Virus record (IMG/VR): IMGVR_UViG_3300014205_009245
DNA length: 64,000 nucleotides
From: an uncultured virus (IMG/VR IMGVR_UViG_3300014205_009245)
Taxonomy: Duplodnaviria > Heunggongvirae > Uroviricota > Caudoviricetes
Direction: 5' to 3' (one strand)
The notes beneath the pieces are model-generated. The model saw nothing but the letters and a program-made list of their open reading frames with translations. It was not told where the DNA came from and searched no databases. Shown piece after piece: positions 2,750 through 62,125 of the stretch (positions are counted from its first letter, which is position 1; every line of letters begins with the position of its first letter). Both the position numbers and the translations under genes were made by a program.

Positions 2750-3601
2750 TCAAAAATCCTCAATACCATTAAAATCTATATTACGTATTGGCACTCGATA
2801 ATTCTCGATAGACTCAGCCAAAAATGGTAGGTCTTTTAGATGTAATGTATCATTTGTCAAACACACACCAGTAGAAATAACATCTAGCGATTCTTTATCC
2901 ACCAATGAAGTATAGCTATTACCAGCAGCCGATTTCCACTTAATTTCTATATTAGGACCTTGCACTATATACGAGGTCAACGAACCACCACCTGTAGTAA
3001 GATATTCATTAAGAATATTTTCGGCTGATGATATTGCCAACTCAAAAGCACAATTATCTTCCGGAGTTATATTTGGTATTTTCTTCAGTGCTTCTCTCAT
3101 TTGGTCTGGAGTGTATTTGGGCACAAAACAATCTCGCATACACTTAGATTTAAATGAATTTGTTGGGCAGATGCCATCGGACCAAAAATGCAAACCGTCG
3201 AATCTGGCCAATACTACGTCAAAGCGATTGTCAAAAGCATTTTTAACAACAAGTTCCCCATCTAGAGAAAACTTATTTCGTGCCACATTAATGCTGGCGG
3301 GATAAGCAACCCACCCGAAATTCGTTTCATAGCACAAAATAACTCTAAGAGATAGAAGACTGTTAAAATACGATCTAACTAAAGATTGATCGGCTTCGCC
3401 TGTATATTCAGCATAAGTAGGAGATATCGGAATGAATTTTCCAATACCCGAGCCAGAAAACCCGCCGATGTGAAATCTATAATTAAGACCATCCATTTTA
3501 ATAATGGCGATCTTAGATTCCTCGGTATAAGGAGCGAGAAATTCTTTTGTGCGAAATTCCCGCTCCATTTTAACAATGTTTTTAAATAAATCATTTTGCA
3601 T
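2750..3601 (-). CDS. conserved hypothetical protein, probable partner of the TROVE-like vWA protein
   Basis: 283 aa; motifs FLAP, WVAYP, ARFDG..FW, ITPE..AF.LA, GGG.L, YTSLVDK..LDVISTGVCL resemble an uncharacterised bacterial family I recall next to this vWA family (unverified). Confidence 0.65.
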   Translation of the reverse strand: MQNDLFKNIVKMEREFRTKEFLAPYTEESKIAIIKMDGLNYRFHIGGFSGSGIGKFIPISPTYAEYTGEADQSLVRSYFNSLLSLRVILCYETNFGWVAYPASINVARNKFSLDGELVVKNAFDNRFDVVLARFDGLHFWSDGICPTNSFKSKCMRDCFVPKYTPDQMREALKKIPNITPEDNCAFELAISSAENILNEYLTTGGGSLTSYIVQGPNIEIKWKSAAGNSYTSLVDKESLDVISTGVCLTNDTLHLKDLPFLAESIENYRVPIRNIDFNGIEDF

Positions 3602-3943: not shown

Positions 3944-4309
3944 TTTGGCATCTCTCAACGGTCCACAATAGCCCGATGCATACCCAGCATAATAACCCAA
4001 TGCCAACGAATCGTCATTTGCGAGATCATGATCTTTGTGTATTCGGTCTCTCAGTAGTGCCCCGTTCATGGACATTCGGCCGAACGCAGTGCGTATCATA
4101 TCCACATCAACCCCCAAATGTAACGCAATTTCGTATAGATCCGGCTTTACACCATTCGATATTGATTTTGCGATAGCAATACCCCATGCTCCATCCCTGT
4201 CCCTGTCGGGTAATGATCTCCATTGATTCCCCATCAAATTACGAATAGCCTTCTCGTAAGGGATTTCAGGAATAATGTTTCTAGACACTTTGAACTCCTT
4301 CACTAACAA
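3932..4309 (-). CDS. hypothetical protein with possible winged helix-turn-helix
   Basis: PDLYEIALHLGVDVDMIRTAFGRM is HTH-like; last codons and stop lie in the IS remnant end. Confidence 0.55.
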   Translation of the reverse strand: MLVKEFKVSRNIIPEIPYEKAIRNLMGNQWRSLPDRDRDGAWGIAIAKSISNGVKPDLYEIALHLGVDVDMIRTAFGRMSMNGALLRDRIHKDHDLANDDSLALGYYAGYASGYCGPLRDAKSTT

Positions 4310-6074
4310 CGTTTAGAAGATTATTGGCGTCCCACTCACTGCGAGTGGGTAAAGTCAACGACAAAATCTCCTGGACTAACTCAAATGTACTTTTACAAGA
4401 AAGCAACTGAATAACGTTAGGTAAAGAAACGCTGTCAATTCCAGTTGCAACTAAAACCGTAACATTAAATCCGGCTTTCTTGAGAGATTTTTCTATAATA
4501 TCGTGTATTCCATATCCAGAACTACCAATTCGTACTATAACGATATTAGGTGTTACACCCATTTTCTTTGAATAAGATTTAAGCTGTTTGGCAAATTTCC
4601 CTTCATTATTTTCTCCCTCATCGGTAACTAATAATATTTGGTCTGCAACCTGGTTCTTAAGTTCCATTGCCATTAGAACCGCAGCAGGATCAGTTCCGCC
4701 ATTAGCCCGGAACATTGCCAGCTTTTTCTCCCAACTAGAGAGTAATGTTATATCTCCATCTTTCTTGTTCCATTCAATTTCTACTGGAGTTGCATCGAAT
4801 AGGTAAACGATAGGTTCATTGCCAGGAGCACATGCCTGTGCTATAGCCGCACTTAGTTGCTTCCCCAGATTAATAGACTCGGTCATCGATCCTGATTTAT
4901 CTATTAATAAAGCAGTTGGAACAGATATATTGCTATGATGCTTTAGCTGCTGATCGGTTATATCTTTCAACAAAGACTGAGTGTCTTTGTCTAGACCTTT
5001 AGTGCTAGCGGCTTTTTTGCCCTTCATTGCATCCATCCGGCCCTTTTTGGCTTTTTTGGCTTTTTCTAATTTGTCATGTATTAATTTCTTCAAATCTGGA
5101 TTGTCAAAAGCCCCTCGGCGTTTTAACAGGTCCATAGATTGCATAATCTCTTGATAAGACATCACCATAATCGATGCAGCCGTAACGGATGGAGTAATAT
5201 CAGACATAAGAGACGATACAACCGTAAACGGCAGATTATTTTCTGTAACAATTTCTGCCTGCCTAATTGGATCTTTCTCGTTTTGTAACGTTTTTAGAGC
5301 ATGTAATCTGGTGCCAGGAATTGTTTCATCGGCAAACAAATATCGATTAATCCAACTATTTGCATTACCAAGAGGTAAAGCATGGGTGCGAACATAAAAC
5401 TTCTTAATTGACTGTGCCGAACGGATCAAAGCCCCTTCCATCATAGCTGGATTGTTTTCTCGATATTTCAGATATGATTTAACAGCTCTTTTCAATATGC
5501 CCTTAAAATTGCGCTGGTTATAACACTTGTGGTGAACCAAATATGTGGTCGCGGTGATTTCCTTAGTATTGTAGTCGATTTTATTTTGTTTTATAAGCAA
5601 AGCTCGCAATTTACTTTTATTACCAAGCTTTATAACACGAACTGGCATATCCTTCCCTCTCTTCTCTGGATCGGGATGATTGCTTCCGTATTTGGCAATT
5701 TCATAAGTCACGCCGAATGAGTTCTGCTTGGGCATATCAGACTCATACGAATGCCGCACTATGGTCTCGTCATAACCAGTGACGTAATTGGCCACCCGGT
5801 CCGCCTCATATGGTGGAAGAGACTGAAACATAACATATCCGGCTTCTTGATGCTGTTCATATGAAGACACCAATAAAGTAGCAATGAACACCTCATTAAT
5901 ATCTCGAACCGCACAATTTTCACCAATGACACAATAGGCGGCTAGTTTACCATAAAAGTTTGGATCTCGCTCAAATTGAGACTTGTGCAAATGCAGGGTT
6001 TCGTCTACCTGCCTATGCGGAGTGCGAAGTAGAGCTTTGAACATTTCTTCTTGAACAGAAAATTGTGATTCCAT
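4281..6074 (-). CDS. vWA-domain protein with helical N-terminus, divergent TROVE/Ro60-like
   Basis: C-terminal MIDAS motifs LLIDKSGSM, GGTD, LVTDEGEN; N-terminal TPHR...DPNFYGKLAAY...VRD resembles the TROVE DP.F..KLA.Y.R segment; 597 aa, Ro60-like size. Confidence 0.75.
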   Translation of the reverse strand: MESQFSVQEEMFKALLRTPHRQVDETLHLHKSQFERDPNFYGKLAAYCVIGENCAVRDINEVFIATLLVSSYEQHQEAGYVMFQSLPPYEADRVANYVTGYDETIVRHSYESDMPKQNSFGVTYEIAKYGSNHPDPEKRGKDMPVRVIKLGNKSKLRALLIKQNKIDYNTKEITATTYLVHHKCYNQRNFKGILKRAVKSYLKYRENNPAMMEGALIRSAQSIKKFYVRTHALPLGNANSWINRYLFADETIPGTRLHALKTLQNEKDPIRQAEIVTENNLPFTVVSSLMSDITPSVTAASIMVMSYQEIMQSMDLLKRRGAFDNPDLKKLIHDKLEKAKKAKKGRMDAMKGKKAASTKGLDKDTQSLLKDITDQQLKHHSNISVPTALLIDKSGSMTESINLGKQLSAAIAQACAPGNEPIVYLFDATPVEIEWNKKDGDITLLSSWEKKLAMFRANGGTDPAAVLMAMELKNQVADQILLVTDEGENNEGKFAKQLKSYSKKMGVTPNIVIVRIGSSGYGIHDIIEKSLKKAGFNVTVLVATGIDSVSLPNVIQLLSCKSTFELVQEILSLTLPTRSEWDANNLLNVVSEGVQSV

Positions 6075-6097
6075 GTTTTACCTCAATTGACTCTGAC

Positions 6098-6126
6098 ATT
6101 ATACGGTATACCCAGCAATAAAACAA
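6098..6126 (-). promoter_or_regulatory. sigma70-like promoter of the vWA gene
   Basis: Minus strand TTGTTT, 17 nt, TATAAT, followed by GAGG RBS and ATG at 6074. Confidence 0.55.
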
Positions 6127-6168
6127 GAGCGTTTCTTCAAAAACCGTTATTCCAGATGTCCGCACAAC

Positions 6169-7143
6169 CTACGAATATTGGACCAAAGTTTCCGAGTTTA
6201 ATAATCCTTCGACCTGCTTAAGAATCAATGCCTTAGATAATTGATCTAAATTTGATGATCTTTTGACAACATCTGCTAGAAACTGTTCATTAGTATAGGT
6301 ATCGTCTATTACTTTTTTCTCGATCTCTTCCCTGAGTGCTTTTGCTATCTGCTTATGCCACGCTACAGCATGTATTGTCTCGACTGAAATGCCCTTACTC
6401 AAAAAGTATACAAAATCACGCATCCACGCATTCTTGGTAAAATCAAGACAACAATGCGTAACACCTTCAGATTCCAGAGATCTTACCCACAAATTTATTG
6501 CACCTTGTTCAGTTATAAACAGGCTATTGTGGCTATGCCCGAACTTGACATCTTGGGTTATTTCAAAAAATCTATCCGTATAATCTTGTCCCTTGCGCTG
6601 CCCAACAACGCCACAATTATATGGCGTCTTCCCTTTTAATAAAGGATGGTTACAATAATCTCCTGTCGTAGAGATTGATACAGTTTCATACCGCTCGGGA
6701 GCAACAAGTATATTCGAGTCACCCGTCACCCAGTCATACCACGTTATAGGTTTTGATATACAGATAATATCAGTATCTATTGCAATTTCATGTTTGTTAA
6801 TATCAATCCTAAAGGGGATCCATTTCCACCAAACACCTTTTGGATAGAAATGATACGGATTTTTCCATTCACCAGATATAACCTTTTGATATTGATTTAT
6901 AATTTCTATATTAACCTGCATTTTAGGATCGGACTGGTAGAACATGTCGCAAAATTTTTTAAATTCATTCCCGTTATATAGTAGAACACATTGGGCTTTT
7001 GGAAACCATTTTTGAAAAGATATAATCGATAATTTAGTAAGCCAGATAAAATCTATAAATTTATTATGTTCATACTCAGACAGCTTAGTGGTGTCTTGGG
7101 ACCCCACTGACCATCTCAAAAGTATATCTGAATTATCAAACAC
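6169..7143 (-). CDS. putative GT-A fold glycosyltransferase
   Basis: WWKW, IAIDTDIIC (DxD motif), YNCGVVG, EQGA resemble GT8/GT-A nucleotide-diphospho-sugar transferases. Confidence 0.55.
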   Translation of the reverse strand: MFDNSDILLRWSVGSQDTTKLSEYEHNKFIDFIWLTKLSIISFQKWFPKAQCVLLYNGNEFKKFCDMFYQSDPKMQVNIEIINQYQKVISGEWKNPYHFYPKGVWWKWIPFRIDINKHEIAIDTDIICISKPITWYDWVTGDSNILVAPERYETVSISTTGDYCNHPLLKGKTPYNCGVVGQRKGQDYTDRFFEITQDVKFGHSHNSLFITEQGAINLWVRSLESEGVTHCCLDFTKNAWMRDFVYFLSKGISVETIHAVAWHKQIAKALREEIEKKVIDDTYTNEQFLADVVKRSSNLDQLSKALILKQVEGLLNSETLVQYS

Positions 7144-8035
7144 TATTCAACTCAATGATTTGATTTAATATGTTCTGTTTTACATTCCCCAAGTAGTCCG
7201 CTGATCCCAAAAAGTGTTCTTTGTTCCACTGCAAAGACTGCTTGTCTGGAATGTATGGCAAATTCGAATGCATATTCAGCGGCACATTTTCAGTTGGAGA
7301 ATATTTATCAGTTCCAGTGCCAACAAAAAACCATTCTAAACCTGTTATTGATATATTGCATATATCTCTATGAATGTTTTTCATTTGTCGCGCAGATACT
7401 TCGGTGCTAGTTGGAATCCACATAGAATTTTCAACGGGAGTGTCGAAGCACGGAATCGCCCATTTAGTCACCCATACTGGTTTTGGATAAAGTTTCATTG
7501 CTTGATTTAATAAACTGCACAATGACCCGATATTTCTATCATCCATCTCGTCGCAACAATGCACTGCATAAATATCAAATAATTTTCTGTTGTTTATAAA
7601 ATAATCTAAACATTTTCTTTCGGTTTGATAATCAAATATTCTAATGGCAGGGGAGATAATTTTAGAATTGGAATGTGATCTAATCAAATTTGCTAGCAGA
7701 TTAGTTCTGGAATTTAATAACCCCCTGAAAGATGAATCGTCGATATTCGGTCTTTCAACCCCAAATGGATTTTCAAACAGCACAATGGCGCTATTCTGTA
7801 TATTTGAAATTTGCAAAGCATATTTGTAAAATTCTGACTGGTCTAAATACCATGACCTATAATCAAGAACATAAATATCAGAATTGCGACAGCTTTCCCA
7901 AAACTGATCATCATGTAGCCTGGTGATTGGGAGCGCCTGTTGACGCGCAGGCTTTAAATGAGCAGATAATATAGGATGAATGATAGTATGATAGTGCTCA
8001 TCTGACCACTCGCCCTCAAGCGCCCTTATCATCAA
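7136..8035 (-). CDS. glycoside hydrolase clan A-like TIM-barrel protein, possibly inactive
   Basis: IISPA, FDIYAVH, KPVWVTKW resemble the GH-A D..A.H.Y and P.W.TE motifs, with K at the nucleophile Glu position. Confidence 0.45.
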   Translation of the reverse strand: MMIRALEGEWSDEHYHTIIHPILSAHLKPARQQALPITRLHDDQFWESCRNSDIYVLDYRSWYLDQSEFYKYALQISNIQNSAIVLFENPFGVERPNIDDSSFRGLLNSRTNLLANLIRSHSNSKIISPAIRIFDYQTERKCLDYFINNRKLFDIYAVHCCDEMDDRNIGSLCSLLNQAMKLYPKPVWVTKWAIPCFDTPVENSMWIPTSTEVSARQMKNIHRDICNISITGLEWFFVGTGTDKYSPTENVPLNMHSNLPYIPDKQSLQWNKEHFLGSADYLGNVKQNILNQIIELNSV

Positions 8036-8050
8036 TCACCACTATTATCA

Positions 8051-8635
8051 TCAATCACCACTATTTGGCGAATTATTCTCTTTCGAGCATTCAATGATAT
8101 GAACTTCGATTATAACGGATTTCGAGTTGTCTTCTGTCGAGAATGTCTCGCCAGAATCAAGGCTAACCCCAACAGGACATTCTGGGTTATCGGCAATATC
8201 GATAAAATCTGCCACGCGATAAAATCTAGAATCTTCGGTTGGCAATATCTCCTCGATTTTGCGATTTATGTCAGCGCAAGTGTCGGGCGTGTTGGCGATA
8301 CCGCGGAATGCGGCGTAGATCAGACTTAAAACATCGAGCCGAGATTCAATACTATAATCGTCATTAAAACACGATGCCAGTATCGCAGATGAATCAACAT
8401 TCACAGGAACCACAAACATTGCTCCCTCATAATTCGAAATATTAATATCCCTCAATAAGGATGAGAATAGATTTTGAGCGCACTCAGAAATAGATCTCGC
8501 TACGCCACTTTCTGCCATTTCTGTGCCAGAGCCTTCCCCAATTTCATCCCACTTAAAATTGGAAAGTAGCTTTTCGTGAGTGTTATCCGATTGATTTGGA
8601 TCGATGATATGATTTTTCTTGATTGACCCCATCAC
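8051..8635 (-). CDS. hypothetical acidic protein
   Basis: 194-aa ORF directly downstream of the ncRNA array, AAGGA RBS. Confidence 0.65.
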   Translation of the reverse strand: MMGSIKKNHIIDPNQSDNTHEKLLSNFKWDEIGEGSGTEMAESGVARSISECAQNLFSSLLRDINISNYEGAMFVVPVNVDSSAILASCFNDDYSIESRLDVLSLIYAAFRGIANTPDTCADINRKIEEILPTEDSRFYRVADFIDIADNPECPVGVSLDSGETFSTEDNSKSVIIEVHIIECSKENNSPNSGD

Positions 8636-8659
8636 AATTTCCTTTCAGATTCAAACAAA

Positions 8660-8739
8660 AAAGCCGCAATAGTCCGGAGGACAGTTCAACATTGGTCAAG
8701 AAAAATGTTTGTAGGTCCGTCCCTTTAGGTTGCGGCTTT
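8660..8739 (-). ncRNA. modular structured RNA, copy C (Y-RNA-like candidate)
   Basis: Terminal stem AAAGCCGCAA/UUGCGGCUUU, CCUAAAG loop, inner stem GGA(C)GGAC/GUCCUCC, UACAAAC, cargo hairpin AACAUU/AAUGUU. Confidence 0.7.
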
Positions 8740-8749
8740 ATACTAGATT

Positions 8750-8801
8750 CTTGTTCTCGGAATTACCCTTCGACTCCGATGGTAACTAGCCGAGAAACAA
8801 G
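8750..8801 (-). ncRNA. long imperfect hairpin within the RNA array
   Basis: CUUGUUUCUCGG..GUUACC..GGUAAU.CCGAGAACAAG fold-back. Confidence 0.4.
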
Positions 8802-8887
8802 CGAAATAAATTCAAAAAACCATGTAAAAAACATAACTGTTCCCCTTTTACTTACTACTCAAAACCGTACTCACATCGAGTACTAAC

Positions 8888-8970
8888 GCGAAGCAAAGGA
8901 GTTGAACCTTTGTGTCATCGACAGAGACAACTTTGACATCATCGTCCGACGAGATCTCACCGTCCCTCGC
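8888..8970 (-). ncRNA. aberrant tRNA-like element
   Basis: T-arm CAAAGG-UUCAACU-CCUUUG, acceptor-like GCGAGG/CUUCGC, D-like stem GACG/CGUC, variable hairpin UGUC-GAU-GACA; anticodon arm non-canonical. Confidence 0.5.
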
Positions 8971-8971
8971 A

Positions 8972-9023
8972 TGGTGCTCGGGAAGGGATGACTCCCAAAA
9001 TTAAATCCTTTCGGATCCCGAAC
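8972..9023 (-). ncRNA. CCA-terminated mini tRNA-like RNA (about 52 nt)
   Basis: GUUCGGGA/UCCCGAGC stem followed by ACCA; internal hairpins UCC-GAAA-GGA and GGGA-GUCA-UCCC. Confidence 0.5.
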
Positions 9024-9030
9024 AAATACA

Positions 9031-9165
9031 AAAAGTTGCGCAAGTTTACGAGGCCGTTTTTGTTTAACAATACAGGATTTGAACCTGCTACCATCACTTT
9101 ATTAGGAGTGTCGCTCTACCAATGAGCTAATTGTTTGTAAGCCAAGCCATTAGGGCGCAACTTTT
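9031..9165 (-). ncRNA. modular structured RNA, copy B, carrying a tRNA-like cloverleaf (9066-9135)
   Basis: 11-bp terminal stem AAAAGUUGCGC/GCGCAACUUUU, CCUAAU, UACAAAC, then D-arm GCUC-AUUGGUA-GAGC, T-arm GCAGG-UUCAAAU-CCUGU, acceptor AACAAU/AUUGUU, 8-nt anticodon loop, no CCA. Confidence 0.8.
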
Positions 9166-9184
9166 ATTCAATTTTAAAAGAACA

Positions 9185-9275
9185 CTCACAAAAGTTCGAC
9201 TGGACTTTTTGAGCCCACATTCGGGACTCAATTCACTCTTCCGCAAGTTTGTAATCCAACCTTTTAGGTTGTGAG
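9185..9275 (-). ncRNA. modular structured RNA, copy A (Y-RNA-like candidate)
   Basis: Terminal stem CUCACAA/UUGUGAG, CCUAAAA, inner stem GGUUGGA/UCCAGUC, UACAAAC, cargo hairpin UUGAGUCCC/GGGCUCAA. Confidence 0.7.
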
Positions 9276-9281
9276 CATACT

Positions 9282-9309
9282 ATTATACTCTATATTCTAC
9301 AGATTTCAA
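9282..9309 (-). promoter_or_regulatory. sigma70-like promoter of the ncRNA array
   Basis: TTGAAA (9304-9309), 16 nt, TATAAT (9282-9287); expected +1 near 9275-9276 coincides with the 5' end of RNA copy A. Confidence 0.7.
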
Positions 9310-9326
9310 GAAAACCCTCTAAATTT

Positions 9327-9716
9327 TTAAGAATTTTCTGGGCACCCACCACAGCTGGAAGCAGCACTGAAACTTTTGCCACATCCACAATTGTATTGTG
9401 CATTAGGGTTTAGAAATACAAAACCGGATTTCATCATACTCTCAACAAAATCGATTTGGCACCCATCTAGATAAATAAAGCTTTTGGGATCACAGATTAT
9501 GTCTATGCCTTCGCTATTATTTTTAATATAATCGACAGGACATTGTTCTTGTACATCTATTGTATATTCAAACCCGGAGCATCCACCTGCCTTAACGCCA
9601 ACACTCAGATAATACCGCGAACCTGGAGCGCCAGTGGAGTCTACGGAACATTGCGATCCTGAATCTTTGATAATCTTCTTAATTTGATCAGCAGCTCGAT
9701 TCGTCACTGTTATCAC
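9327..9716 (-). CDS. iscA: A-type iron-sulfur cluster carrier (HesB/IscA/ErpA family)
   Basis: GGCSGFEY, SFIYLDG..IDF, GFVFLNPNA..CGCGKSF. Confidence 0.93.
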   Translation of the reverse strand: MITVTNRAADQIKKIIKDSGSQCSVDSTGAPGSRYYLSVGVKAGGCSGFEYTIDVQEQCPVDYIKNNSEGIDIICDPKSFIYLDGCQIDFVESMMKSGFVFLNPNAQYNCGCGKSFSAASSCGGCPENS

Positions 9717-9832
9717 TCATATTCTCCTCAGATATCATGAATTTCAACCAATCTCATCATCGGCTTCAAACCAGCCTTTTGTGTATCCTTCAAGAAATTC
9801 ACCTGCCCATGCTTTGGAAATTGGCCGTATTC

Positions 9833-10390
9833 CTATGTGCTGTGAGATTCATTTTTAAGTGCAAATATTAACCCCTCCGGTAATTTCCAAAGATTAGATA
9901 CCGTGCCAGACGAAGCACATAATCTGTCCAAAATATCCGTTTTGGGCATATTCATCAATTTAACTTGATACGGCAAAAACATTGACTTGTAATTCTGGCC
10001 CCACTGAAAATAAACCCCATCCTGTTTATCATCCCATGCCATAGGATTTGCCAAATAGACTACATCATTTATGATGTAGAAATAAAAAGTACTTGTTTGA
10101 AGCTTGGAAACAGTAACTCCGTTGTTAATTAAATTTCCATAAATATTTTCCAAAACAATGTCAGCGCTATTCATCACATTGGTCAAATTTTCTGATAAGA
10201 ATCCTTCCCGAATAATCTGATTACCCACGCTGTCGATCACGCCAACATAAAAACCTTTGTGCGGAATTTCAAGAGACTGTTGTAGCATAGAATTGTGCAC
10301 AAATAGTTGCCCAACATCAATTTTTGCTACGAGCTTACTTCGAAAATAATTGGCAAGTTGTTGCCAGATTTCTTTAGATATCATGTTCAT
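9833..10390 (-). CDS. divergent AMMECR1-domain protein (AmrA-like)
   Basis: KGFYVGV, DGVYF, SMFLPYQV, ILDRLC match the AMMECR1 G.FV / DG / .FLP.V / L..LC pattern; LRGCIG motif not conserved. Confidence 0.6.
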   Translation of the reverse strand: MNMISKEIWQQLANYFRSKLVAKIDVGQLFVHNSMLQQSLEIPHKGFYVGVIDSVGNQIIREGFLSENLTNVMNSADIVLENIYGNLINNGVTVSKLQTSTFYFYIINDVVYLANPMAWDDKQDGVYFQWGQNYKSMFLPYQVKLMNMPKTDILDRLCASSGTVSNLWKLPEGLIFALKNESHST

Positions 10391-31146: not shown

Positions 31147-31881
31147 GTGAATACAGAGAATTACTTGTTTATGGTTCCATTAATTAGTATTTTTAGCGCG
31201 GCAATATATACAAAATACTGGGAAAACACATATAAAACCCTGTCAAACAGCCAAATTGACTTTGAAATAGTATATGCAGGGCACGTTGTTCCACAAATAT
31301 CTCTGCCTCCAAACTTTAAATTTATACGAACCGATGCAAATCCAGCCAGAGCTGCCCATATGGCATTTTCTCAAACTATAGGTAAATACGTAATTCATAT
31401 GGTGGATGACCTTGTTCCGCAGGAAGATTTCTTACAAAAAATGTTACAAAGCATGCTCGAATCAGACGAACAGCATACCATAATAACGGGGAATTATAAG
31501 AAAAAGGACACAAATCCCCTCATGCCCATAACACCTCCGGGTTTTGGGATAATGCCCATCACAATGATGATTACTAAAACTTTATTTATAAATCTGGGAG
31601 GATTTGACCGCAGATTCATTAATACCGGATGGGAAGCCGATATTGCTCTCAGACTATTTTATAAAAATGGAACGGTTATAAGAAGTTCTGCCTGGCTATA
31701 TGAACATCTCGACAATAAGCGTAATAGATTATCACAAAAAAGTTCAAAAGACTTTGATTTGTGTCAGACATTGTGGCCTAAATGCATAGTAAAAGAGTAT
31801 TGTGATCTAAATGAAGTAAAAAACGGAAGAACAGACAGAATAATGCCTTATACTCCTGAGCGTAAAACTACGGGGTTTTAA
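31147..31881 (+). CDS. glycosyltransferase family 2-like; C-terminus now runs into the IS left end
   Basis: HMVDD, NLGGFDRRF, DIALR; related to 25893 and 29742. Confidence 0.7.
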   Translation: MNTENYLFMVPLISIFSAAIYTKYWENTYKTLSNSQIDFEIVYAGHVVPQISLPPNFKFIRTDANPARAAHMAFSQTIGKYVIHMVDDLVPQEDFLQKMLQSMLESDEQHTIITGNYKKKDTNPLMPITPPGFGIMPITMMITKTLFINLGGFDRRFINTGWEADIALRLFYKNGTVIRSSAWLYEHLDNKRNRLSQKSSKDFDLCQTLWPKCIVKEYCDLNEVKNGRTDRIMPYTPERKTTGF

Positions 31882-33164
31882 CCCCTGTAGATATAAGCGA
31901 ACTTTTAAATTTCTTACGAGGAATTATACTCAATTTCCTTGTATAATTCAATAGAAATGCCAATGAAATCTTTTAAATACAGGCTTTATCCCACTCGAAA
32001 ACAAGAGCAACTACTTATAAACACTCTAAATACTTGTAGGCACACATATAACGATGCACTTGAACAAAGAAAAGAGGCTTATCAAAACACTCAAAAAACT
32101 TTAACTTATAACCAGCAGGCGAACAACTTAGCTAAAAATAAGAATCATTACCAGTCTCAAGTTTATTCTCAGGTGCTACAAAACGTTCTTAAAAGGCTCG
32201 ATAAATCTTATAAAAGATTTTTCGATCGATGCAAACAGGGAACAAAAAAAGCAGGATTTCCACGCTTTAAGAGTTTTAATAGATATCGTTCTTTTACTTA
32301 TCCTCAGTTGGGCTTTAGAATTACATCAAATAATAAAAGAGTAGAACTTTCTAAAATTGGTTGTGTTAAGATGGTTTATAGTAGGCCAATTTTAGGAGAT
32401 ATAAAAACGTGCCAAGTGGTACGAGATGTAGATCATTGGTACGTTATCTTTGCTTGTGATATAGAGCAAGAATTTATCATACATTCTAATCCTGGTTCTG
32501 TTGTAGGAATAGATGTAGGGATTAAAACTTTATGTGCTTTATCTACTGGAGAAACTATAGAGAATCCTAAGTTCTTAAAGAAAACAGAACATTCACTCGC
32601 AAGAACACAGAGAACTTTTTCAAGAAAACCCACAAAGACTAGCAACAGAAGGAACAAGCAACGAATCAAAGTAGCACGTCTACACAGAAAAATACGATTT
32701 CAAAGAGATGATTATTTACACAAAGCGTCTTCTTGTCTAGCAAAGAGCTTTGAAACCATAGTTTTTGAAGATTTAACAGTTTCTAATATGGTTAAAAACC
32801 ATAAGTTAGCTAAAAGCATAAGTGACTGTTCTTGGAATAAATTAGTTCAATACACTACCTACAAGGCTGAGAGTGCCGGTGGGAAAGTGGAGCTAGTTAA
32901 TCCCAAGAATACCAGCCAATTATGTAGCTCTTGTGGTTCGATGGTTAGGAAAGATTTAAGTGTTAGAATACATAAATGCCCTTGTTGTGGGGACGTAGAA
33001 GACAGAGACTTAAATGCTAGCAAAAATATTTTAAATAGATATACCGTAGGGCTTGCGGGAATAAACGCTCTAGGAGAACAATCCTCTACTTTGCTAGAAA
33101 TGGCGGGGCAAGAATGTTCAGTGATTAGAGAATCTGTGGGACTTTAGTCCCTGCGGAGTGTCAA
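31852..33164 (+). mobile_element. IS200/IS605-family element with solo tnpB (IS1341-like)
   Basis: Similar subterminal hairpins ctacggggttttaacccctgtag (31868-31890) and tctgtgggactttagtccctgcgga (33133-33157); right end TCAA; TTAT immediately 5'; no tnpA. Confidence 0.85.
31963..33147 (+). CDS. tnpB: RNA-guided endonuclease TnpB
   Basis: KYRLYPT HTH, GIDVGI (RuvC-I), VFEDL (RuvC-II), TSQLCSSCG..CPCCG zinc finger, DRDLNASKNI (RuvC-III); all catalytic residues present. Confidence 0.96.
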   Translation: MKSFKYRLYPTRKQEQLLINTLNTCRHTYNDALEQRKEAYQNTQKTLTYNQQANNLAKNKNHYQSQVYSQVLQNVLKRLDKSYKRFFDRCKQGTKKAGFPRFKSFNRYRSFTYPQLGFRITSNNKRVELSKIGCVKMVYSRPILGDIKTCQVVRDVDHWYVIFACDIEQEFIIHSNPGSVVGIDVGIKTLCALSTGETIENPKFLKKTEHSLARTQRTFSRKPTKTSNRRNKQRIKVARLHRKIRFQRDDYLHKASSCLAKSFETIVFEDLTVSNMVKNHKLAKSISDCSWNKLVQYTTYKAESAGGKVELVNPKNTSQLCSSCGSMVRKDLSVRIHKCPCCGDVEDRDLNASKNILNRYTVGLAGINALGEQSSTLLEMAGQECSVIRESVGL

Positions 33165-41430: not shown

Positions 41431-42344
41431 TGATTATCCTTGAACCATTCATAGGTTTTTTGGATGCCATATTCAAAGGAAGTAAAATCATGGAAACCTA
41501 ATTTTTCTACTTTTTCAATAGATACGTCCCTTCGCAGCACTCCATCTGAACCGCCTTTAAATAAAATCTTTCCAGAAAATCCAATTTTTGAAGAAATTAC
41601 AGCAGCAATTTGCTTAATAGAAAGATTCTCAGGCGGTGCAAAATTTATTTCCCCGGTTGGTTTATTCTTCAGGCAGAACATTATAAATTTTGATAAATCG
41701 TCAACAAAAGTCATTTGTCGCAATGCTTTACCCGTGCCCAGCAATTCCACAGCCGGAGAATTAATATTCTCGTGGAATCTTCGCATTAGTGCAGCTACAA
41801 CATGTGATTTGTTTGTCTCAAAACAATCGTATGGACCATACAAATTACTGGAATGAATCACAGTGTATTTCATCGGACTGTTGAATTGCTTATCTAAGCA
41901 TTTAAGCTGAATTGGCATCATTCGCTTTGCATATGCATATCCATAGATACTCTTATCTGGTTCTCCATATTGGGATAATTCCTCAGATATCGGAAAGTTA
42001 TTTATCTCAGGAGAATACACACAAACACTTGACATTGCAACTAGATATTCAATTTTAAATTTAAAACAGGCATTAATGATATTACTATTAATTATAATGT
42101 TCTGATAGAAAAAGTCATAGGGATGCTGTAATTGGTCTGGAATTCCCCCAACCTTTCCCGCAAGATGAATAACTGTTTTAGGATTAAATTTTTTAAACAT
42201 ATTTTCAACTTGATCATAATCCATTAAATCATAATCTTCTCTGCTGGTGTATATTGCATCAATTGCATCAGGCAGGAACTTTTGCAAAGACTTTCCTGCC
42301 ATACCTTTTCCGCCCGTAACTAATATCATACTCGTAATCTCCAA
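41424..42344 (-). CDS. fcl: GDP-L-fucose synthase-like epimerase/reductase
   Basis: TGGKGMAG, HLAGKVGGI, SSVCVY, GYAYAKR, NLYGP.D, SHVVAAL, GTGKALR. Confidence 0.85.
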   Translation of the reverse strand: MEITSMILVTGGKGMAGKSLQKFLPDAIDAIYTSREDYDLMDYDQVENMFKKFNPKTVIHLAGKVGGIPDQLQHPYDFFYQNIIINSNIINACFKFKIEYLVAMSSVCVYSPEINNFPISEELSQYGEPDKSIYGYAYAKRMMPIQLKCLDKQFNSPMKYTVIHSSNLYGPYDCFETNKSHVVAALMRRFHENINSPAVELLGTGKALRQMTFVDDLSKFIMFCLKNKPTGEINFAPPENLSIKQIAAVISSKIGFSGKILFKGGSDGVLRRDVSIEKVEKLGFHDFTSFEYGIQKTYEWFKDNQC

Positions 42345-44419
42345 TAATTTAACATGTCGTTTAACATCTGGTCAATACTAATTTCTGGTTGCCATCCAGT
42401 TTCCTTTTTAAATTTGGAACAATCTGGTATCTGAAGAGTTACATCTGAAGGTCTCAATCTAGATGCGTCTACTTCTATCTTAATATCACCTCGTGTAGAA
42501 AAGCTCATTAACCGATTGAGCATTTCTTTTATAGACATTGTTTCATTCCCGCCGATATTATACACTTCGCCTATTGAACATTTATTTACCATTAACCAAT
42601 ATGCTTTTACAACATCTCGAACATCAGCAAAGGTCCTGATGCTGTCAAGGTTACCAACTTTAATTACTGGTTCTTGCTTGCCTTTCTCTATTTGGGCAAT
42701 TTGTTTGGCAAAATTAGATCCGACAAAAACATCACCTCTTCTTGGGCCACAATGAGTAAACATACGGCTTCGTATAACTTTCAATCCCCATGATAAATAA
42801 TATTGAAATCCTAACATATCCTCACATACTTTTGAAACAGCATACGGAGAGGCCGGCCTGAGCTGACAGCTTTCATTGATAGGCACTTCATCGGGAAGAA
42901 CCTGACCATACACCTCTGAGGATGAGCATACAAGTATGATTGGATCTATTCCGTTTACTCTGGATAATTTAATAGCTTCTAATAAGTTGCATGTGCCCTG
43001 ACAGTTAACATCTAAAGTTGTAACAGGAGCCTGGAAACTGTATGGAACATAAGAGTTATGAATTATAAGATTTCCTACACCTGCTGCGAAAATCTCTGGG
43101 CCTCCGATTGAAATATCATATACATAACCTTCGTATGGCATAGTGGTAATTGTTCTTTTGGTTACTCCTTGCCGTGGCTGATAAAAACCACACTCACGAA
43201 TAAAAAACGCTCCATTCTCATATATTGTATAATCTTTTCCAATAAGGGTTAATAGTAAACACAATTGCGCAGCAAGTTTTCTAGATGACGTAGTATATCT
43301 TAAAATATCATAACGTTGTCTTTCCTCGTAGCAACCGTCACCTTCAGCCAAAACTCTTAGAAAATCAAGCTGTTTCTCTTTCGGCAGACGGAAAATAAAA
43401 TTCGGAATTTGTTTGAATTCGCTTAGTCTTCCACAATATTTTGTTATTATATCATAAAGTAATTCCGATGTAATTGTTAAACTAAAAACATCTTTATAAC
43501 CAGACTTTTTACCAGTACTATATCTACCAGTTATGCCTTCGCTGAAATGCTGCAATTCTTTGTTTCTTTCTGCTAGCCATTCCTTATTTTGATTACTAAT
43601 TGTAACTGTAAAATTTTTTCTTTTTACCCTTGAGTGCGCACATCCCTCCGATATGTAAGCGGCACAAAATCTTGTAAAACTATCAAGTTTTTCTCCCGAC
43701 AAGACAACTGGAATTCTTTTGTTGGGAATATTTGGAATAAAAAAGCAATCTTTGTATTTTTTATACTTTCGTGTAGTTTTGATCCGTACTTCCGTTATCT
43801 CATTTTTATTATAATAATTAATCTTTCTCATAGGCAGGAGTTCTGGATTATCCATCGGAGACGCCAATTGCCCATATTTATCTATTACACAATGATTGGG
43901 GGTAACTTTTATTGATCCAAATTTTTGCTTTAATTCAACAATGTCACCATTATATTTATGTCGTGTAATCTGTTGGATTGGTAACCAATTTCCCATCCCA
44001 GAAAAAAAGCTTATAGCCCGTATCTGTGAGTTTTTTATATTTATTATTTCTGTTTCGATTCCATTATGAACAGTAGATTTAATATTATTTCTTTTTGAGC
44101 ACGTTTTCCAAAGTTCGCCAAAGGTGATTAATTCCATGCTTTTTGATTTTAAAATTGGAATAAATTCATCTTCTGCCACCGACTGCGCAGCCAGATGAAA
44201 AACGAAATCTGGTTTGACATCATTTATAATACCAAATATTGACGGATAATCTGTCAGATCGCCATAGTGTAAATGAATTTCATTCTCAATATGTTTTATG
44301 TTGTCTTTTGGAGACCGCCATCGAGCTAAGCCATGAATTTGCATATCACCCAAAGACAATAAATATTCAGACAAATGGCTGCCTACAAATCCAGTAATTC
44401 CAGTAATCAGTGCGTTCAA
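42326..44419 (-). CDS. gmd: GDP-mannose 4,6-dehydratase-family enzyme interrupted by an intein
   Basis: ITGITGFVG, GDLTD, HLAAQ|S.V..SF, SSSEVYG, SPYAVSK, GNLDS.R; extein is 321 aa. Confidence 0.88.
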   Translation of the reverse strand: MNALITGITGFVGSHLSEYLLSLGDMQIHGLARWRSPKDNIKHIENEIHLHYGDLTDYPSIFGIINDVKPDFVFHLAAQSVAEDEFIPILKSKSMELITFGELWKTCSKRNNIKSTVHNGIETEIINIKNSQIRAISFFSGMGNWLPIQQITRHKYNGDIVELKQKFGSIKVTPNHCVIDKYGQLASPMDNPELLPMRKINYYNKNEITEVRIKTTRKYKKYKDCFFIPNIPNKRIPVVLSGEKLDSFTRFCAAYISEGCAHSRVKRKNFTVTISNQNKEWLAERNKELQHFSEGITGRYSTGKKSGYKDVFSLTITSELLYDIITKYCGRLSEFKQIPNFIFRLPKEKQLDFLRVLAEGDGCYEERQRYDILRYTTSSRKLAAQLCLLLTLIGKDYTIYENGAFFIRECGFYQPRQGVTKRTITTMPYEGYVYDISIGGPEIFAAGVGNLIIHNSYVPYSFQAPVTTLDVNCQGTCNLLEAIKLSRVNGIDPIILVCSSSEVYGQVLPDEVPINESCQLRPASPYAVSKVCEDMLGFQYYLSWGLKVIRSRMFTHCGPRRGDVFVGSNFAKQIAQIEKGKQEPVIKVGNLDSIRTFADVRDVVKAYWLMVNKCSIGEVYNIGGNETMSIKEMLNRLMSFSTRGDIKIEVDASRLRPSDVTLQIPDCSKFKKETGWQPEISIDQMLNDMLNYWRLRV
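43055..44182 (-). mobile_element. intein (376 aa) with LAGLIDADG homing endonuclease
   Basis: Starts SVAEDE, block B VTPNH, LAGLIDADG-like AAYISEG and LAEGDG, block F YVYDI, ends IHN followed by Ser; removal restores HLAAQSYVPYSF. Confidence 0.93.
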
Positions 44420-59982: not shown

Positions 59983-60959
59983 TGTTGTTTCTCCACCAAG
60001 GTTAGCGTCAAACCATCTGGAATAATTATCTGATTATCTTCACATTCAGAAGTTTTACTCTTAAATGAGTCACATTTATTTCGCTTTCGAACTACTGAAA
60101 ATACATCATAATTAACCACGACAAGTTCGCTCTCTTCTATTTCTCTTTTCCCAGATTCTGCGGCAGAAGAATACAACATTGGACTTGTTCTAAAAATGTG
60201 GTAATTTTGATAAAGTTCCAATACTTCTGGAACATCATCATACGTAATCATGAACTTATTCCCCAGGTTGTGTATATTGTCACAGTATTTTTTTAGATCT
60301 TTATGGTCCTGTGCTCCAAATGTAAATTCATAGTACCCTGTATCATCAGCTACAAAATACGGTGGGTCCATTATAAAAAACACACCACCATATTCCTTTC
60401 CACTATTATTTTTATTATATCTTTCAATAAATTCACGGAAATCAAGACTCTCAATTATTGCATTATTAACTCTAAACCTTTCCACTAATGGCTCAAAATC
60501 ATAATTCATATTATTACGAGGTTTTATAGAATAACCGGCAGATGATTGCGAACTAAAACTGTTCTTAACTAAGTAATAGTATCGAAATGCCTTCATAGCA
60601 GGAGACATTTTATCTATTTCTTCTTGTGAAATTTTTTGTATTTCAACAAAATAGGACCTAGACGATGGCATAGTGCGAACGTAGTTTATAAATTCATCGG
60701 TATCGGCAGACGTAAAAGGATAAACACCGGCAATAACTTTCATTAAGTGTACGAGATTTAGATTTATATCATTAATTACTTCTCGTTTAGACATTTTTGG
60801 CGGCTTGCCAGCCCATATTGTAAAAGAGCCACCAAACACTTCGCAGTAGCACTCATGTTTTGGCATAATTGAATAAATTGTCGGGCGCATTTTGCTCTTG
60901 CCGCCGACCCACCCAATAGGAGCCGATGCAACTGGAGATATGACTTTGTTAACTATCAT
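59979..60959 (-). CDS. DNA adenine methyltransferase (Dam/D12 family)
   Basis: WVGGKS, EVFGGS, EVINDIN, ESLDF, DPPY, MITYD. Confidence 0.92.
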   Translation of the reverse strand: MIVNKVISPVASAPIGWVGGKSKMRPTIYSIMPKHECYCEVFGGSFTIWAGKPPKMSKREVINDINLNLVHLMKVIAGVYPFTSADTDEFINYVRTMPSSRSYFVEIQKISQEEIDKMSPAMKAFRYYYLVKNSFSSQSSAGYSIKPRNNMNYDFEPLVERFRVNNAIIESLDFREFIERYNKNNSGKEYGGVFFIMDPPYFVADDTGYYEFTFGAQDHKDLKKYCDNIHNLGNKFMITYDDVPEVLELYQNYHIFRTSPMLYSSAAESGKREIEESELVVVNYDVFSVVRKRNKCDSFKSKTSECEDNQIIIPDGLTLTLVEKQQ

Positions 60960-62125
60960 AGGTTAAGATACTTCGTGTCGTTTCTGTCTGGACCATAACT
61001 TAATATTGTCACGGGTACTCCGGATTTTTCCTCAATTATTTCAATATATTTCATTAATGCCGGATCCTCTATTGTATTCCAGCCAGGTGTATATTTCAAC
61101 TCACCATCGGTATCGATAAACCCAATTCTATCTATCCCGCATAATGTATCCGCATGCATAAGGGCGATTTCTGTTGTTCCAGTAACATCAATGGCATATT
61201 TCAATAATCGGAAATCTACCCATCCAATTCTTCGAGGCCGTCCTGTTGTTGTGCCATATTCGTTGCCTTTTTCTCTAATACGATCAGCAATTTCTTTGCA
61301 TAGAGCAAACCTTAGATCTAAATGATATGAATTTATAATACCAAGTTCACCAGGAAATGGTCCTTCTCCGACTCGGGTGGTATAACACTTCATGACTCCT
61401 ATAATACGATCTAAATGAAGATTAGGCAAACCACAGGATTGAGGAATCGCAGATGGGCCAACTCCAGAGCTTGTAACATATGGATATGAAAATCCATGAT
61501 CGACATCCAATCCGATACCTTGCGCTCCCTCAAAAAGAATATTTCGGCCATCTTTTACATCTTTACGAAGCTTCTCGCCAGTATCACAAATAAACGGATA
61601 CAGCATATCAGCAGCGGTTTTATAATCTGTCCACAACTTGTTTCCATGAAATATTTCGTCAGTAGCAAAAAAATTCTGAAATTTCGCATCGATTAGTTTT
61701 CGAACCAAATCCCCCATTCTAATTGCGTTCCATCTGTGCATCTTATCTGCATAGCATGGACCTATGCCTTTCTTGGTAGTCCCTATTCCATCCCCCTGTT
61801 TTGCATCACATACTATATGCCAAGGCATAACAGCATGTGCTCTATCGCTGATAAATAGCGGAGCGGAAGTTTTATAATTTTGGATTTCCTTGGCCAGAGA
61901 AATTGGGTTTAAAACCATGCCATTGGCCAATACACTTTCCTTGCCTGATAAATATCCGGTCGGTAATTGATGTAATTTATAGGTTTTATCATTAAATCGA
62001 ACTGTATGTCCAGCATTAGCGCCACCCGAGTATCTAACTACAATATCGTAGTCGGATGAGAGTAAATCAGTAATTTTCCCTTTGGCCTCGTCGCCGAAAA
62101 ACAAGCCCACTATAGATGTGTTCAA
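60956..62125 (-). CDS. purA: adenylosuccinate synthetase
   Basis: GDEAKGK, GGANAGHT, IGTTKKGIGPCYADK, FEGAQG, YPYVTSS, EYGTTTGRPRR. Confidence 0.95.
   Translation of the reverse strand: MNTSIVGLFFGDEAKGKITDLLSSDYDIVVRYSGGANAGHTVRFNDKTYKLHQLPTGYLSGKESVLANGMVLNPISLAKEIQNYKTSAPLFISDRAHAVMPWHIVCDAKQGDGIGTTKKGIGPCYADKMHRWNAIRMGDLVRKLIDAKFQNFFATDEIFHGNKLWTDYKTAADMLYPFICDTGEKLRKDVKDGRNILFEGAQGIGLDVDHGFSYPYVTSSGVGPSAIPQSCGLPNLHLDRIIGVMKCYTTRVGEGPFPGELGIINSYHLDLRFALCKEIADRIREKGNEYGTTTGRPRRIGWVDFRLLKYAIDVTGTTEIALMHADTLCGIDRIGFIDTDGELKYTPGWNTIEDPALMKYIEIIEEKSGVPVTILSYGPDRNDTKYLNL

Follow-up and report, generated by a model that had tools for sequence, protein, structure and literature searches.

Animals, bacteria, and a few phages are known to have Y RNAs and Ro60. 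According to the accessible text of Chen et al. (2014; PMC4201824), the ends of the bacterial RNA YrlA pair with each other, its 5′ part includes a GNCGAAN0-1G motif close to the end, and a conserved YUAY opens a permuted core made of a T arm, a closed acceptor hairpin, and a D arm. Bacterial Y RNAs are sought in that text within 4 kb of a Ro60 ortholog and on its strand, and the canonical cyanobacterial Ro60 proteins of its Table S1 have 533–534 amino acids (aa) and one YrlA each, 104–1,320 nucleotides (nt) away. Among phages, the accessible text on Thermus phage phiLo (PMC12135203; PDB 9KOP and 9L5Y) describes two Y-like RNAs, Yrl1 and Yrl2, which lie upstream of phiRo60 and bind phiRo60, as well as a ternary complex with the host PNPase. 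A survey of jumbo phages (PMC7824862) mentions, in the part available, that a subset of the phages has ROT/TROVE proteins accompanied by a tRNA-like partner. Here we analyze a stretch of 64,000 nt (the window) from an uncultured virus of the Caudoviricetes (IMG/VR record IMGVR_UViG_3300014205_009245). It carries an array of three short units that, judging from sequence, are likely to be Y-RNA-like RNAs and the partners of a Ro60-like ring protein, whose gene has the same orientation and lies 2.6 kb downstream.

Three Units with One Layout

All three units lie on the minus strand, and each consists of a constant part, the handle, and of a cargo that differs from unit to unit. Unit A (9184..9276) carries a two-hairpin cargo of about 41 nt. 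Unit B (9031..9165) has an outer helix of 11 base pairs (bp), and its cargo is a nonpermuted tRNA-like cloverleaf. Unit C (8660..8739) has an outer helix of 10 bp, a bulged C in the inner helix, and a single-hairpin cargo. Read from 5′ to 3′, the layout starts with the first strand of the outer helix (7–11 bp), CCUAA, 1–2 nt, the first strand of the inner helix (7–8 bp), YUACAAAC, and the cargo; the partner of the inner helix, RRACUW, the partner of the outer helix, and a U-rich tail follow in each of the three. The successive elements are CUCACAA, CCUAA, GGUUGGA, UUACAAAC, cargo, UCCAGUC, GAACUU, and UUGUGAG in unit A; AAAAGUUGCGC, CCUAA, GGCUUGGC, UUACAAAC, cargo, GGCCUCG, UAAACUU, and GCGCAACUUUU in unit B; and AAAGCCGCAA, CCUAA, GGGA(C)GGAC, CUACAAAC, cargo, GUCCUCC, GGACUA, and UUGCGGCUUU in unit C. 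The cargo stem of unit C begins inside UACAAAC (AACAUU/AAUGUU), and UUUGUUUG lies directly 3′ of this unit. The pattern CCTAAN{6,16}TACAAAC has three matches in the window, all on the minus strand and at the units, against 0.06 expected, and a count of three is reached in none of 100 shuffles of the window.

An earlier note on this DNA had proposed three minus-strand units with a common layout; they are present, and its coordinates are right within a few bases. Minimum free energy folds reproduce the outer and inner stems that it had drawn, with z-scores of −2.25 for unit A, −1.95 for unit B, and −4.14 for unit C, those of units A and B being modest when such single-sequence values are taken alone. 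The inner stem of unit B, which the note had called imperfect, indeed contains two nonstandard pairs in the alignment to the covariance model described below, and in unit A all 15 model pairs are standard.

A Cryptic Ro60-Like Protein

The presumed protein partner of these RNAs is encoded at 4281..6074 on the minus strand, thus on the strand of the units, by an open reading frame (ORF) that lies 2,586 nt beyond unit C, the units being 2.6–3.2 kb away. Its product of 597 aa is a cryptic homolog of Ro60/Rsr. Pfam TROVE has no match at E ≤ 0.01 in this protein or in two of its relatives, and Pfam vWA_Ro60 scores 19.7 bits, under its cutoff of 27.7. Among PHROGs, the match is phrog_850, labeled "RNA-binding protein" (E = 8e-7). 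When a profile of 61 homologs (A1) is compared with PDB sequences, the best match is Rsr of Deinococcus radiodurans (2nvo, E = 3.6e-4), accompanied by TROVE chains. The AlphaFold (AF2) model of the window protein has a predicted local distance difference test score (pLDDT) of 86.4 and a predicted template-modeling score (pTM) of 0.75. In a Foldseek search with this model the top 12 rows are all Ro60, Rsr, or TROVE proteins, phiRo60 of phiLo among them, with E from 1.6e-11 to 2.3e-8 and template-modeling (TM) scores of 0.46–0.68 over 427–621 alignment columns (560–621 in 11 of the 12), and the rows that follow are vWA-only domains with E ≥ 6e-5.

The model thus has the predicted features that define Ro60/Rsr, namely a HEAT-repeat ring and a C-terminal von Willebrand factor A (vWA) domain with a MIDAS, or metal ion-dependent adhesion site. 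Residues D392, S394, S396, T461, and D485 (the DxSxS, T, and D residues), which are invariant in the 61 homologs, would be those of the MIDAS. Proteins of this Ro-like clade have about 477–500 aa in cyanobacteria and phages. We take it that the clade, with its arrays of units, is a second system, separate from canonical cyanobacterial Ro60/YrlA, because both the length of these proteins and the arrays differ from what is found in the latter, in which proteins of 533–534 aa have one YrlA each.

Aligned with a cyanobacterial relative of 477 aa, the window protein has about 96 extra aa (residues 99–194), and in the model this insertion consists mostly of beta strands.

Relatives of the Units

The sole ground for including a locus was that it codes for a relative of the protein; viral contigs contributed 21 loci, metagenomes 78, phage records one, and species genomes 80. 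The metagenome loci come from the best 80 of 248 relatives, and the species-genome loci are the best 80 of at least 336 relatives in 185,579 genomes. A scan of viral contigs with the single protein found no relative; an alignment-based scan found them. With tblastn the window protein matches one of 50,697 phage records, an unannotated uncultured phage of 595 kb, and megablast of positions 4000–10000 of the window has no match among phage records. Three of the 21 viral loci also contain the exact pattern of the window, in each case with the orientation of the gene, and a hand-written descriptor finds units with other helix sequences and the same unpaired motifs. A first inner-helix descriptor demanded unbroken pairing and missed units B and C of the window; a covariance model was used instead. 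This model, R1, was built from 18 short-cargo seeds and has 78 positions and 15 base pairs. Unit A of the window is among the seeds, and units B and C are not (unit C was shifted by one column in the MAFFT alignment).

R1 has 522 matches in 181 sources, which comprise the window, contigs of huge phages and metagenomes, and many cyanobacterial genomes. In the window and 99 loci (983 kb) there are 202 matches at E ≤ 0.01, and 201 of them lie on the strand of the Ro-like gene. A further 81 loci (950 kb) give 320 matches, and among the matches listed 300 of 300 are on the strand of the gene. By hand count, 63 of the 100 sources formed by the window and the 99 loci have at least one match. Within the window R1 recovers unit A (54.1 bits, E = 2e-12), unit C (42.1 bits, E = 4e-9), and unit B (40.0 bits, E = 1.6e-8), and the fourth-best match has E = 1.8.

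The alignment of the 150 best matches allows an analysis of covariation. In it 95.7% of the cells are paired, a value raised by the fitting to R1 that is discussed below, compared with 68.8 ± 0.6% in shuffles, and pairing drops to 35%–49% when partners are slid by one to three columns. Changes on both sides occur at all 15 pairs (667 cells), and the observed covariation score is reached in none of 500 shuffles. In the outer helix, all eight pairs show compensatory changes. Up to six pair types occur at a paired position of the model, a variety that would be hard to obtain otherwise than by real pairing.

The unpaired positions behave in the opposite way. The 5′ loop has the consensus CCNA (C 99%, C 91%, A 99%), the top of the inner helix is conserved as AGC/GCU, UACA (99%–100%) is followed by A or U and then by AC (99%), giving UACAWAC, and the 3′ loop has ACU (100%) and U (86%). 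The unpaired loops are thus invariant where the helices covary, which is the pattern of a protein-binding handle. A third helix is suggested by the W of UACAWAC. Of the 103 units in which W is A, 29 have the downstream partner GUUU and 3 have GUAU; of the 139 in which it is U, 92 have GU[AG]U and 5 have GUUU. As a generic test of the length of this helix is barely over its control (3.82 vs. 3.29, and 3.88 vs. 3.67), the evidence for it is this covariation between W and its partner.

Several other arrangements recur near the Ro-like gene. R1 matches with a larger cargo, their length being constant at about 205 nt, are found downstream of the gene in many cyanobacterial loci (for example L104 8717–8922, L132 8886–9091, L162 8764–8969, and L178 8547–8752, where the gene ends near 7,400). 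In L013 (6879–7090), L016 (6245–6446), L017 (7147–7345), and L018 (6055–6302) there are "half units", in which a 5′ handle with UACAAAC and an apparent tRNA 3′ half precede a complete unit, the 3′ strand of which could pair with both 5′ strands. The viral contig L017 also has two group I introns (Rfam, 65–67 bits; 1917–2115 and 2920–3107) in a tRNA array upstream of its Ro-like gene.

Cargo Variety and Probable tRNA Mimicry

The tRNA-like module of unit B (9064..9136, minus strand) scores 48.2 bits on Rfam tRNA, for a gathering score of 29. Its D, anticodon, and T arms follow one another in the normal order, and its acceptor stem, which starts within the conserved UACAAAC, is open; in units A and C no part corresponds to a tRNA. 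The anticodon loop of the module has 8 nt (CCUAAUAA) in place of 7, and the 7-bp acceptor stem is not paired throughout, its first pair (1–72) being mismatched; the anticodon stem has 4 bp and an A·A mismatch (27–43), and CCA is not encoded. ARAGORN names it "tRNA-???", with a two-letter anticodon (aa).

Such cargos are frequent in the family. Among the first 150 matches ARAGORN finds a forward cloverleaf in 42, a regular expression finds the permuted order (T arm, then D arm) in 16, and the others have just one of these two arms or none. Among 300 aligned units (alignments A4, the first 150, and A5) a forward cloverleaf is present in 122, with modules of 40–68 bits on Rfam tRNA, and is absent from 178. 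In 80 of the 122 the U of UACAWAC is the first position of the tRNA, and in the subclade of the window the tRNA begins 3–4 nt later; hence the heptamer is read as the 5′ strand of an acceptor-like helix. The 114 distinct cloverleaf cargos share one common body, with the same D arm, anticodon stem, CU-NNN-AA loop, and T arm, and the information content of the anticodon triplet and of the variable loop is close to 0 bits. There are 33 anticodons in the 122 units, with A34 in 23 units, stop-reading triplets in 10, and non-triplet loops in three. In eight near-identical Nostoc orthologs, about 10 of about 123 columns vary, three of them within the 7-nt anticodon loop, by a hand count on small numbers. 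Cargos with a variable anticodon span loci L101–L180 and L040–L099 (for example L161, L162, L169, L170, L175, and L178, at about 5270–5492), in addition to 9064–9136 of the window.

These cargos could be taken at face value, the units being precursors of working tRNAs, a form of the tRNA arrays of huge phages in which the handle is a leader–trailer duplex that guides RNase P and RNase Z. The number and scores of the forward cloverleaves fit this explanation, and so does the position of the arrays, which adjoin ordinary tRNA genes in several loci. Moreover, RNase P cleaves YrlA of Mycobacterium smegmatis and CCA is added to this RNA, according to the accessible text of PMC4201824. We nevertheless find it improbable, since in the model-fitted alignments A4 and A5 the same handle bears permuted cores with the acceptor stem between T and D arms (16 of the 150 in A4), inserts made of a T arm only, and plain hairpins, and since most aligned units, as well as units A and C of the window, have no forward cloverleaf. 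One body and one acceptor stem are present in all cloverleaf cargos, whatever the anticodon; the A34 anticodons, the non-triplet loops, and the defects of the unit B module (8-nt loop, mismatched first acceptor pair) also speak against working tRNAs. Bacterial tRNAs for Leu and Ser have a long variable arm. Many of the anticodons here are of Leu or Ser type, yet only about five positions separate the anticodon and T stems in a 73-column majority consensus. The single acceptor stem, the short variable region under Leu and Ser anticodons, and the presence of non-tRNA cargos on the same handle argue that the cloverleaf cargos are tRNA mimics and not working tRNAs.

The comparison with the tRNA arrays of phages and cyanobacteria leads to the same contrast. 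The modules score as tRNA and their arrays adjoin tRNA genes, but here they sit inside a conserved handle, with one body and a free-running anticodon, and the handle bears non-tRNA cargos too. The main text of a paper on L-arrays (PMC8421152), in the part available, has no occurrence of Willebrand, vWA, TROVE, Ro60, Y RNA, or tRNA-like. A preprint of 2026 names three families of tRNA mimics, skipping-rope, DUF2693-FD, and salivarius-1.

Linkage of the Units to the Ro-Like Gene

All 300 aligned units have the orientation of the Ro-like gene. Most lie upstream of it (283, at a median of 561 nt, 276 of them within 4 kb) and 13 lie downstream; of the remaining four, one is flagged only for an over-long protein match and three are the window units, which stand outside this tally. 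In five whole records of huge phages (1,914,570 bases) R1 has 23 matches, all on the strand of the gene, 22 within about 5 kb of it and one at 19 kb. The units of the window are on the same strand as the putative Ro60 ortholog and less than about 4 kb from it, which is the neighborhood in which Chen et al. (2014) sought bacterial Y RNAs.

Some observations weigh against the proposal that the units are Y-RNA-like partners of this protein. Three ORFs separate the units from the gene in the window (in most relatives the two are adjacent). No R1 match is found in 37 of the 100 sources mentioned above, many of which have little upstream DNA, and some loci with a full upstream flank also have none (e.g., L006–L011, L014, and L027). 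The GNCGAAN0-1G motif of YrlA is absent from all three window units and is present in the first 30 nt of none of the 300 aligned units, in which CCNA takes its place, and Rfam Y_RNA (RF00019) and YrlA (RF02553) have no match in 8300–9700 even at E ≤ 10. The values of the seed alignment (n = 18; 99.6% paired, 15 of 15 pairs changed on both sides) are circular because the seeds were chosen by a descriptor requiring pairing, and the larger alignments were fitted to R1, which inflates their pairing. Finally, no RtcB, PNPase, or other recurrent protein neighbor is found in two annotated loci, one cyanobacterial and one from a phage; on this ground the module seems to consist of the RNA array and the Ro-like gene.

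The intervening ORFs, together with the U-rich tract at the end of each unit, would suit independent structured RNAs, such as regulatory small RNAs or elements for the processing or termination of operons, whose closeness to the gene reflects shared regulation or mobility. This is quite improbable. In phages as well as cyanobacteria, the coupling of strand and distance holds across protein relatives that are only 30%–40% identical; the helices vary around unpaired loop nucleotides with 99%–100% conservation, as expected of a protein-binding site; and the relatives with a permuted cargo resemble YrlA. That the units are remnants of repeats or mobile elements, of the type of miniature inverted-repeat transposable elements, or a chance likeness, is scarcely credible, for although tandem arrays and terminal inverted complementarity superficially recall small mobile elements, the outer helices differ between copies and yet stay complementary through compensatory changes in eight of eight pairs, 22 of 23 matches in 1.91 Mb adjoin one gene without scatter, and the chance expectation of the motif is 0.06 per window.

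Comparison with Known Ro60/Y RNA Systems

YrlA provides the closest parallel for the Y-RNA-like units. In Salmonella and Pseudomonas, as far as the available sources go, it has the same order of elements, with an outer helix, a 5′ loop, an inner helix, CUACA, the core, the inner partner, AACU[UC]G, and the outer partner. Like YrlA, the units also lie close to a co-oriented Ro60-type gene, and they share with it the paired ends, YUAC, ACUY(G), and a tRNA-like cargo. They differ in the 5′ motif, in the core, which in unit B has the normal order and an open acceptor stem, unlike the permuted core of YrlA, and in the presumed partner, which is no Pfam TROVE protein in the window. An Rfam scan of 8300–9700 at E ≤ 10 gives only tRNA, ES003, and Plastid-ycf2, and YrlA and Y_RNA have no match at the gathering score in 11 related loci. 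Ten relatives with a permuted cargo, from five loci, do match RF02553 at 25.8–41.2 bits (E down to 9e-6), below the gathering score of 69; in nine of them the match covers only the tRNA-like core (within positions 23–88 of the 114 of the model) and in one it is of full length. Because these subthreshold matches are mostly confined to the core, the family is tied to YrlA by its cargo and architecture and has a different handle.

Phage phiLo is a second parallel, as it also has a phage Ro60-type gene with Y-like RNAs just upstream. In the text available, a CGAA motif within a large bulge served to pick the Yrl RNAs, with no mention there of a tRNA module. The identity between the window protein and phiRo60 is 13%, and the former has an extra inserted domain. 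The Y RNAs of metazoans (RF00019) are similar in that their terminal helix with conserved bulged nucleotides is the handle for Ro60, their variable loop is the effector module, and there are several paralogs per genome. Their 5′ motif GGUCCGA (PMC4201824, accessible text) shares CC.A with CCNA, a short resemblance. They differ by having no tRNA-like module and another polymerase, and RF00019 has no match in the window.

The units are thus a real Y-RNA-like family, a new and large form of the Ro60/Y RNA theme, and not a new kind of system. With respect to Rfam and the open-access literature, its new elements are the handle motif, the cryptic Ro60 clade, the nonpermuted whole-tRNA cargos, and the apparently hypervariable anticodon; searches of open-access papers and of the main texts of bioRxiv find no description of either the handle motif or the Ro-like clade. 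The earlier note had seen in the units a structured noncoding RNA family with a constant handle, a swappable cargo, and the logic of Y RNAs. The hundreds of copies with full covariation bear this out, as the covariance-model search for homologs shows all 15 pairs to covary, and so do the position and strand that tie the copies to a gene with a predicted Ro60/Rsr fold, as well as the layout shared with published YrlA. Its view that the family is not a described one holds narrowly: the Rfam comparison gives no Y_RNA or YrlA match (the tRNA model matches unit B), but the kind of RNA, Y RNAs beside Ro60, phages included, was already known. The cloverleaf of unit B, the U-rich tracts after the units, and the downstream Ro60-like gene are absent from that note.

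Promoter, Spacer, and Genome Context

A promoter-like site of sigma-70 type, TTGAAA-16-TATAAT, lies at 9282..9309 on the minus strand. It matches 11 of 12 consensus positions and is the best promoter match in 8300–9800; transcription would start about 6–8 nt downstream, at the foot of the outer helix of unit A. The promoter proposed previously at this place is thus a real site, but the complete scan shows no enrichment of such sites against shuffles (6 sites vs. 3.2 ± 1.7), and it is therefore to be regarded as a consensus match only. The array of a related phage contig contains six TTGACA promoters, all of one orientation and each matching at least 10 of 12 positions. Among the sequencing runs listed for positions 8000–10000 of the window there are five of DNA, two of which may be the source of this DNA, and none of RNA.

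The spacer between units B and C contains a structured segment (8862..9030, minus strand; fold z-score −2.41) that falls outside the family, having no Rfam and no R1 match. It includes a T-arm-like hairpin (CAAAGGUUCAACUCCUUUG) and, at its end, a terminator-like hairpin (8883–8867), and may be another, unrelated small RNA or a decayed unit. On the other side of the array, the gene at 9327–9716 (minus strand) codes for an Fe-S assembly protein of IscA/HesB type (Pfam Fe-S_biosyn, E = 3.6e-15) and ends 18 nt before the promoter-like site.

The window is probably part of the genome of a huge phage. Its context is phage-like, with a thymidylate synthase (from PHROG matches only, which do not distinguish ThyA from ThyX), a dCMP deaminase, a methylase of Dam type, a short protein resembling PurA, and a long block of sugar and radical-SAM genes that share one strand, and the closest protein relatives are found in contigs of 250–520 kb and in IMG/VR records. 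The PurA-like protein, similar to adenylosuccinate synthetase (60956–62125, minus strand, 389 aa), matches only positions 2–336 of a Pfam profile that has 416. In size and phage setting it recalls PurZ of phages with 2-aminoadenine DNA. At 42326–44419 (minus strand) a GDP-mannose 4,6-dehydratase is split by an intein with a LAGLIDADG domain. Positions 31147–33147 are a rare plus-strand stretch in the long minus-strand block and include, at 31939–33147, a protein of TnpB/IS605 OrfB type.

Discussion

The proposed mechanism starts with transcription of the array from the sigma-70-like promoter, after which processing would yield species of 80–135 nt that bind the protein. In each of these, the 5′ and 3′ ends would close into the outer helix P1, above which an asymmetric internal loop (CCNA on the 5′ side and RACUU on the 3′ side) would lead to the inner helix P2, ending in AGC/GCU. 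By analogy with the terminal helix of Y RNAs, to which Ro60 binds, the handle made of P1, the loop, and P2 is the presumed site of the Ro-like protein. UACAWAC would be the 5′ strand of a third helix, the equivalent of the acceptor stem of tRNA, from which the cargo emerges. The cargo would bring partners, such as tRNA-binding enzymes or exoribonucleases, to the ring protein, or gate its cavity, and the function of the system is probably to redirect the decay of host RNA or the quality control of tRNA during infection.

A bolder proposal, which we hold to be unlikely, is that the constant Ro-binding handle displays a tRNA-shaped module with a fixed body and a free anticodon, in an uncatalogued Ro60-like ribonucleoprotein system widespread in cyanobacteria and huge phages, each array of which would be a small library of anticodon-addressed RNAs. 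If so, these could pick particular tRNAs or codons for the ring protein, or decoy anticodon nucleases.

The RNAs are absent from Rfam and the protein escapes TROVE, so that the units are presumably annotated as odd tRNAs and the protein as a "vWA domain protein". Because one handle bears whole-tRNA, permuted-tRNA, T-arm-only, and hairpin cargos, the family is a natural experiment on modularity, and it is present in cultured cyanobacteria, for example Fischerella muscicola PCC 7414, Calothrix sp. NIES-4101, and Moorena producens 3L, where binding and function are accessible. To huge phages it likely adds a module for the takeover of RNA metabolism or for counter-defense.

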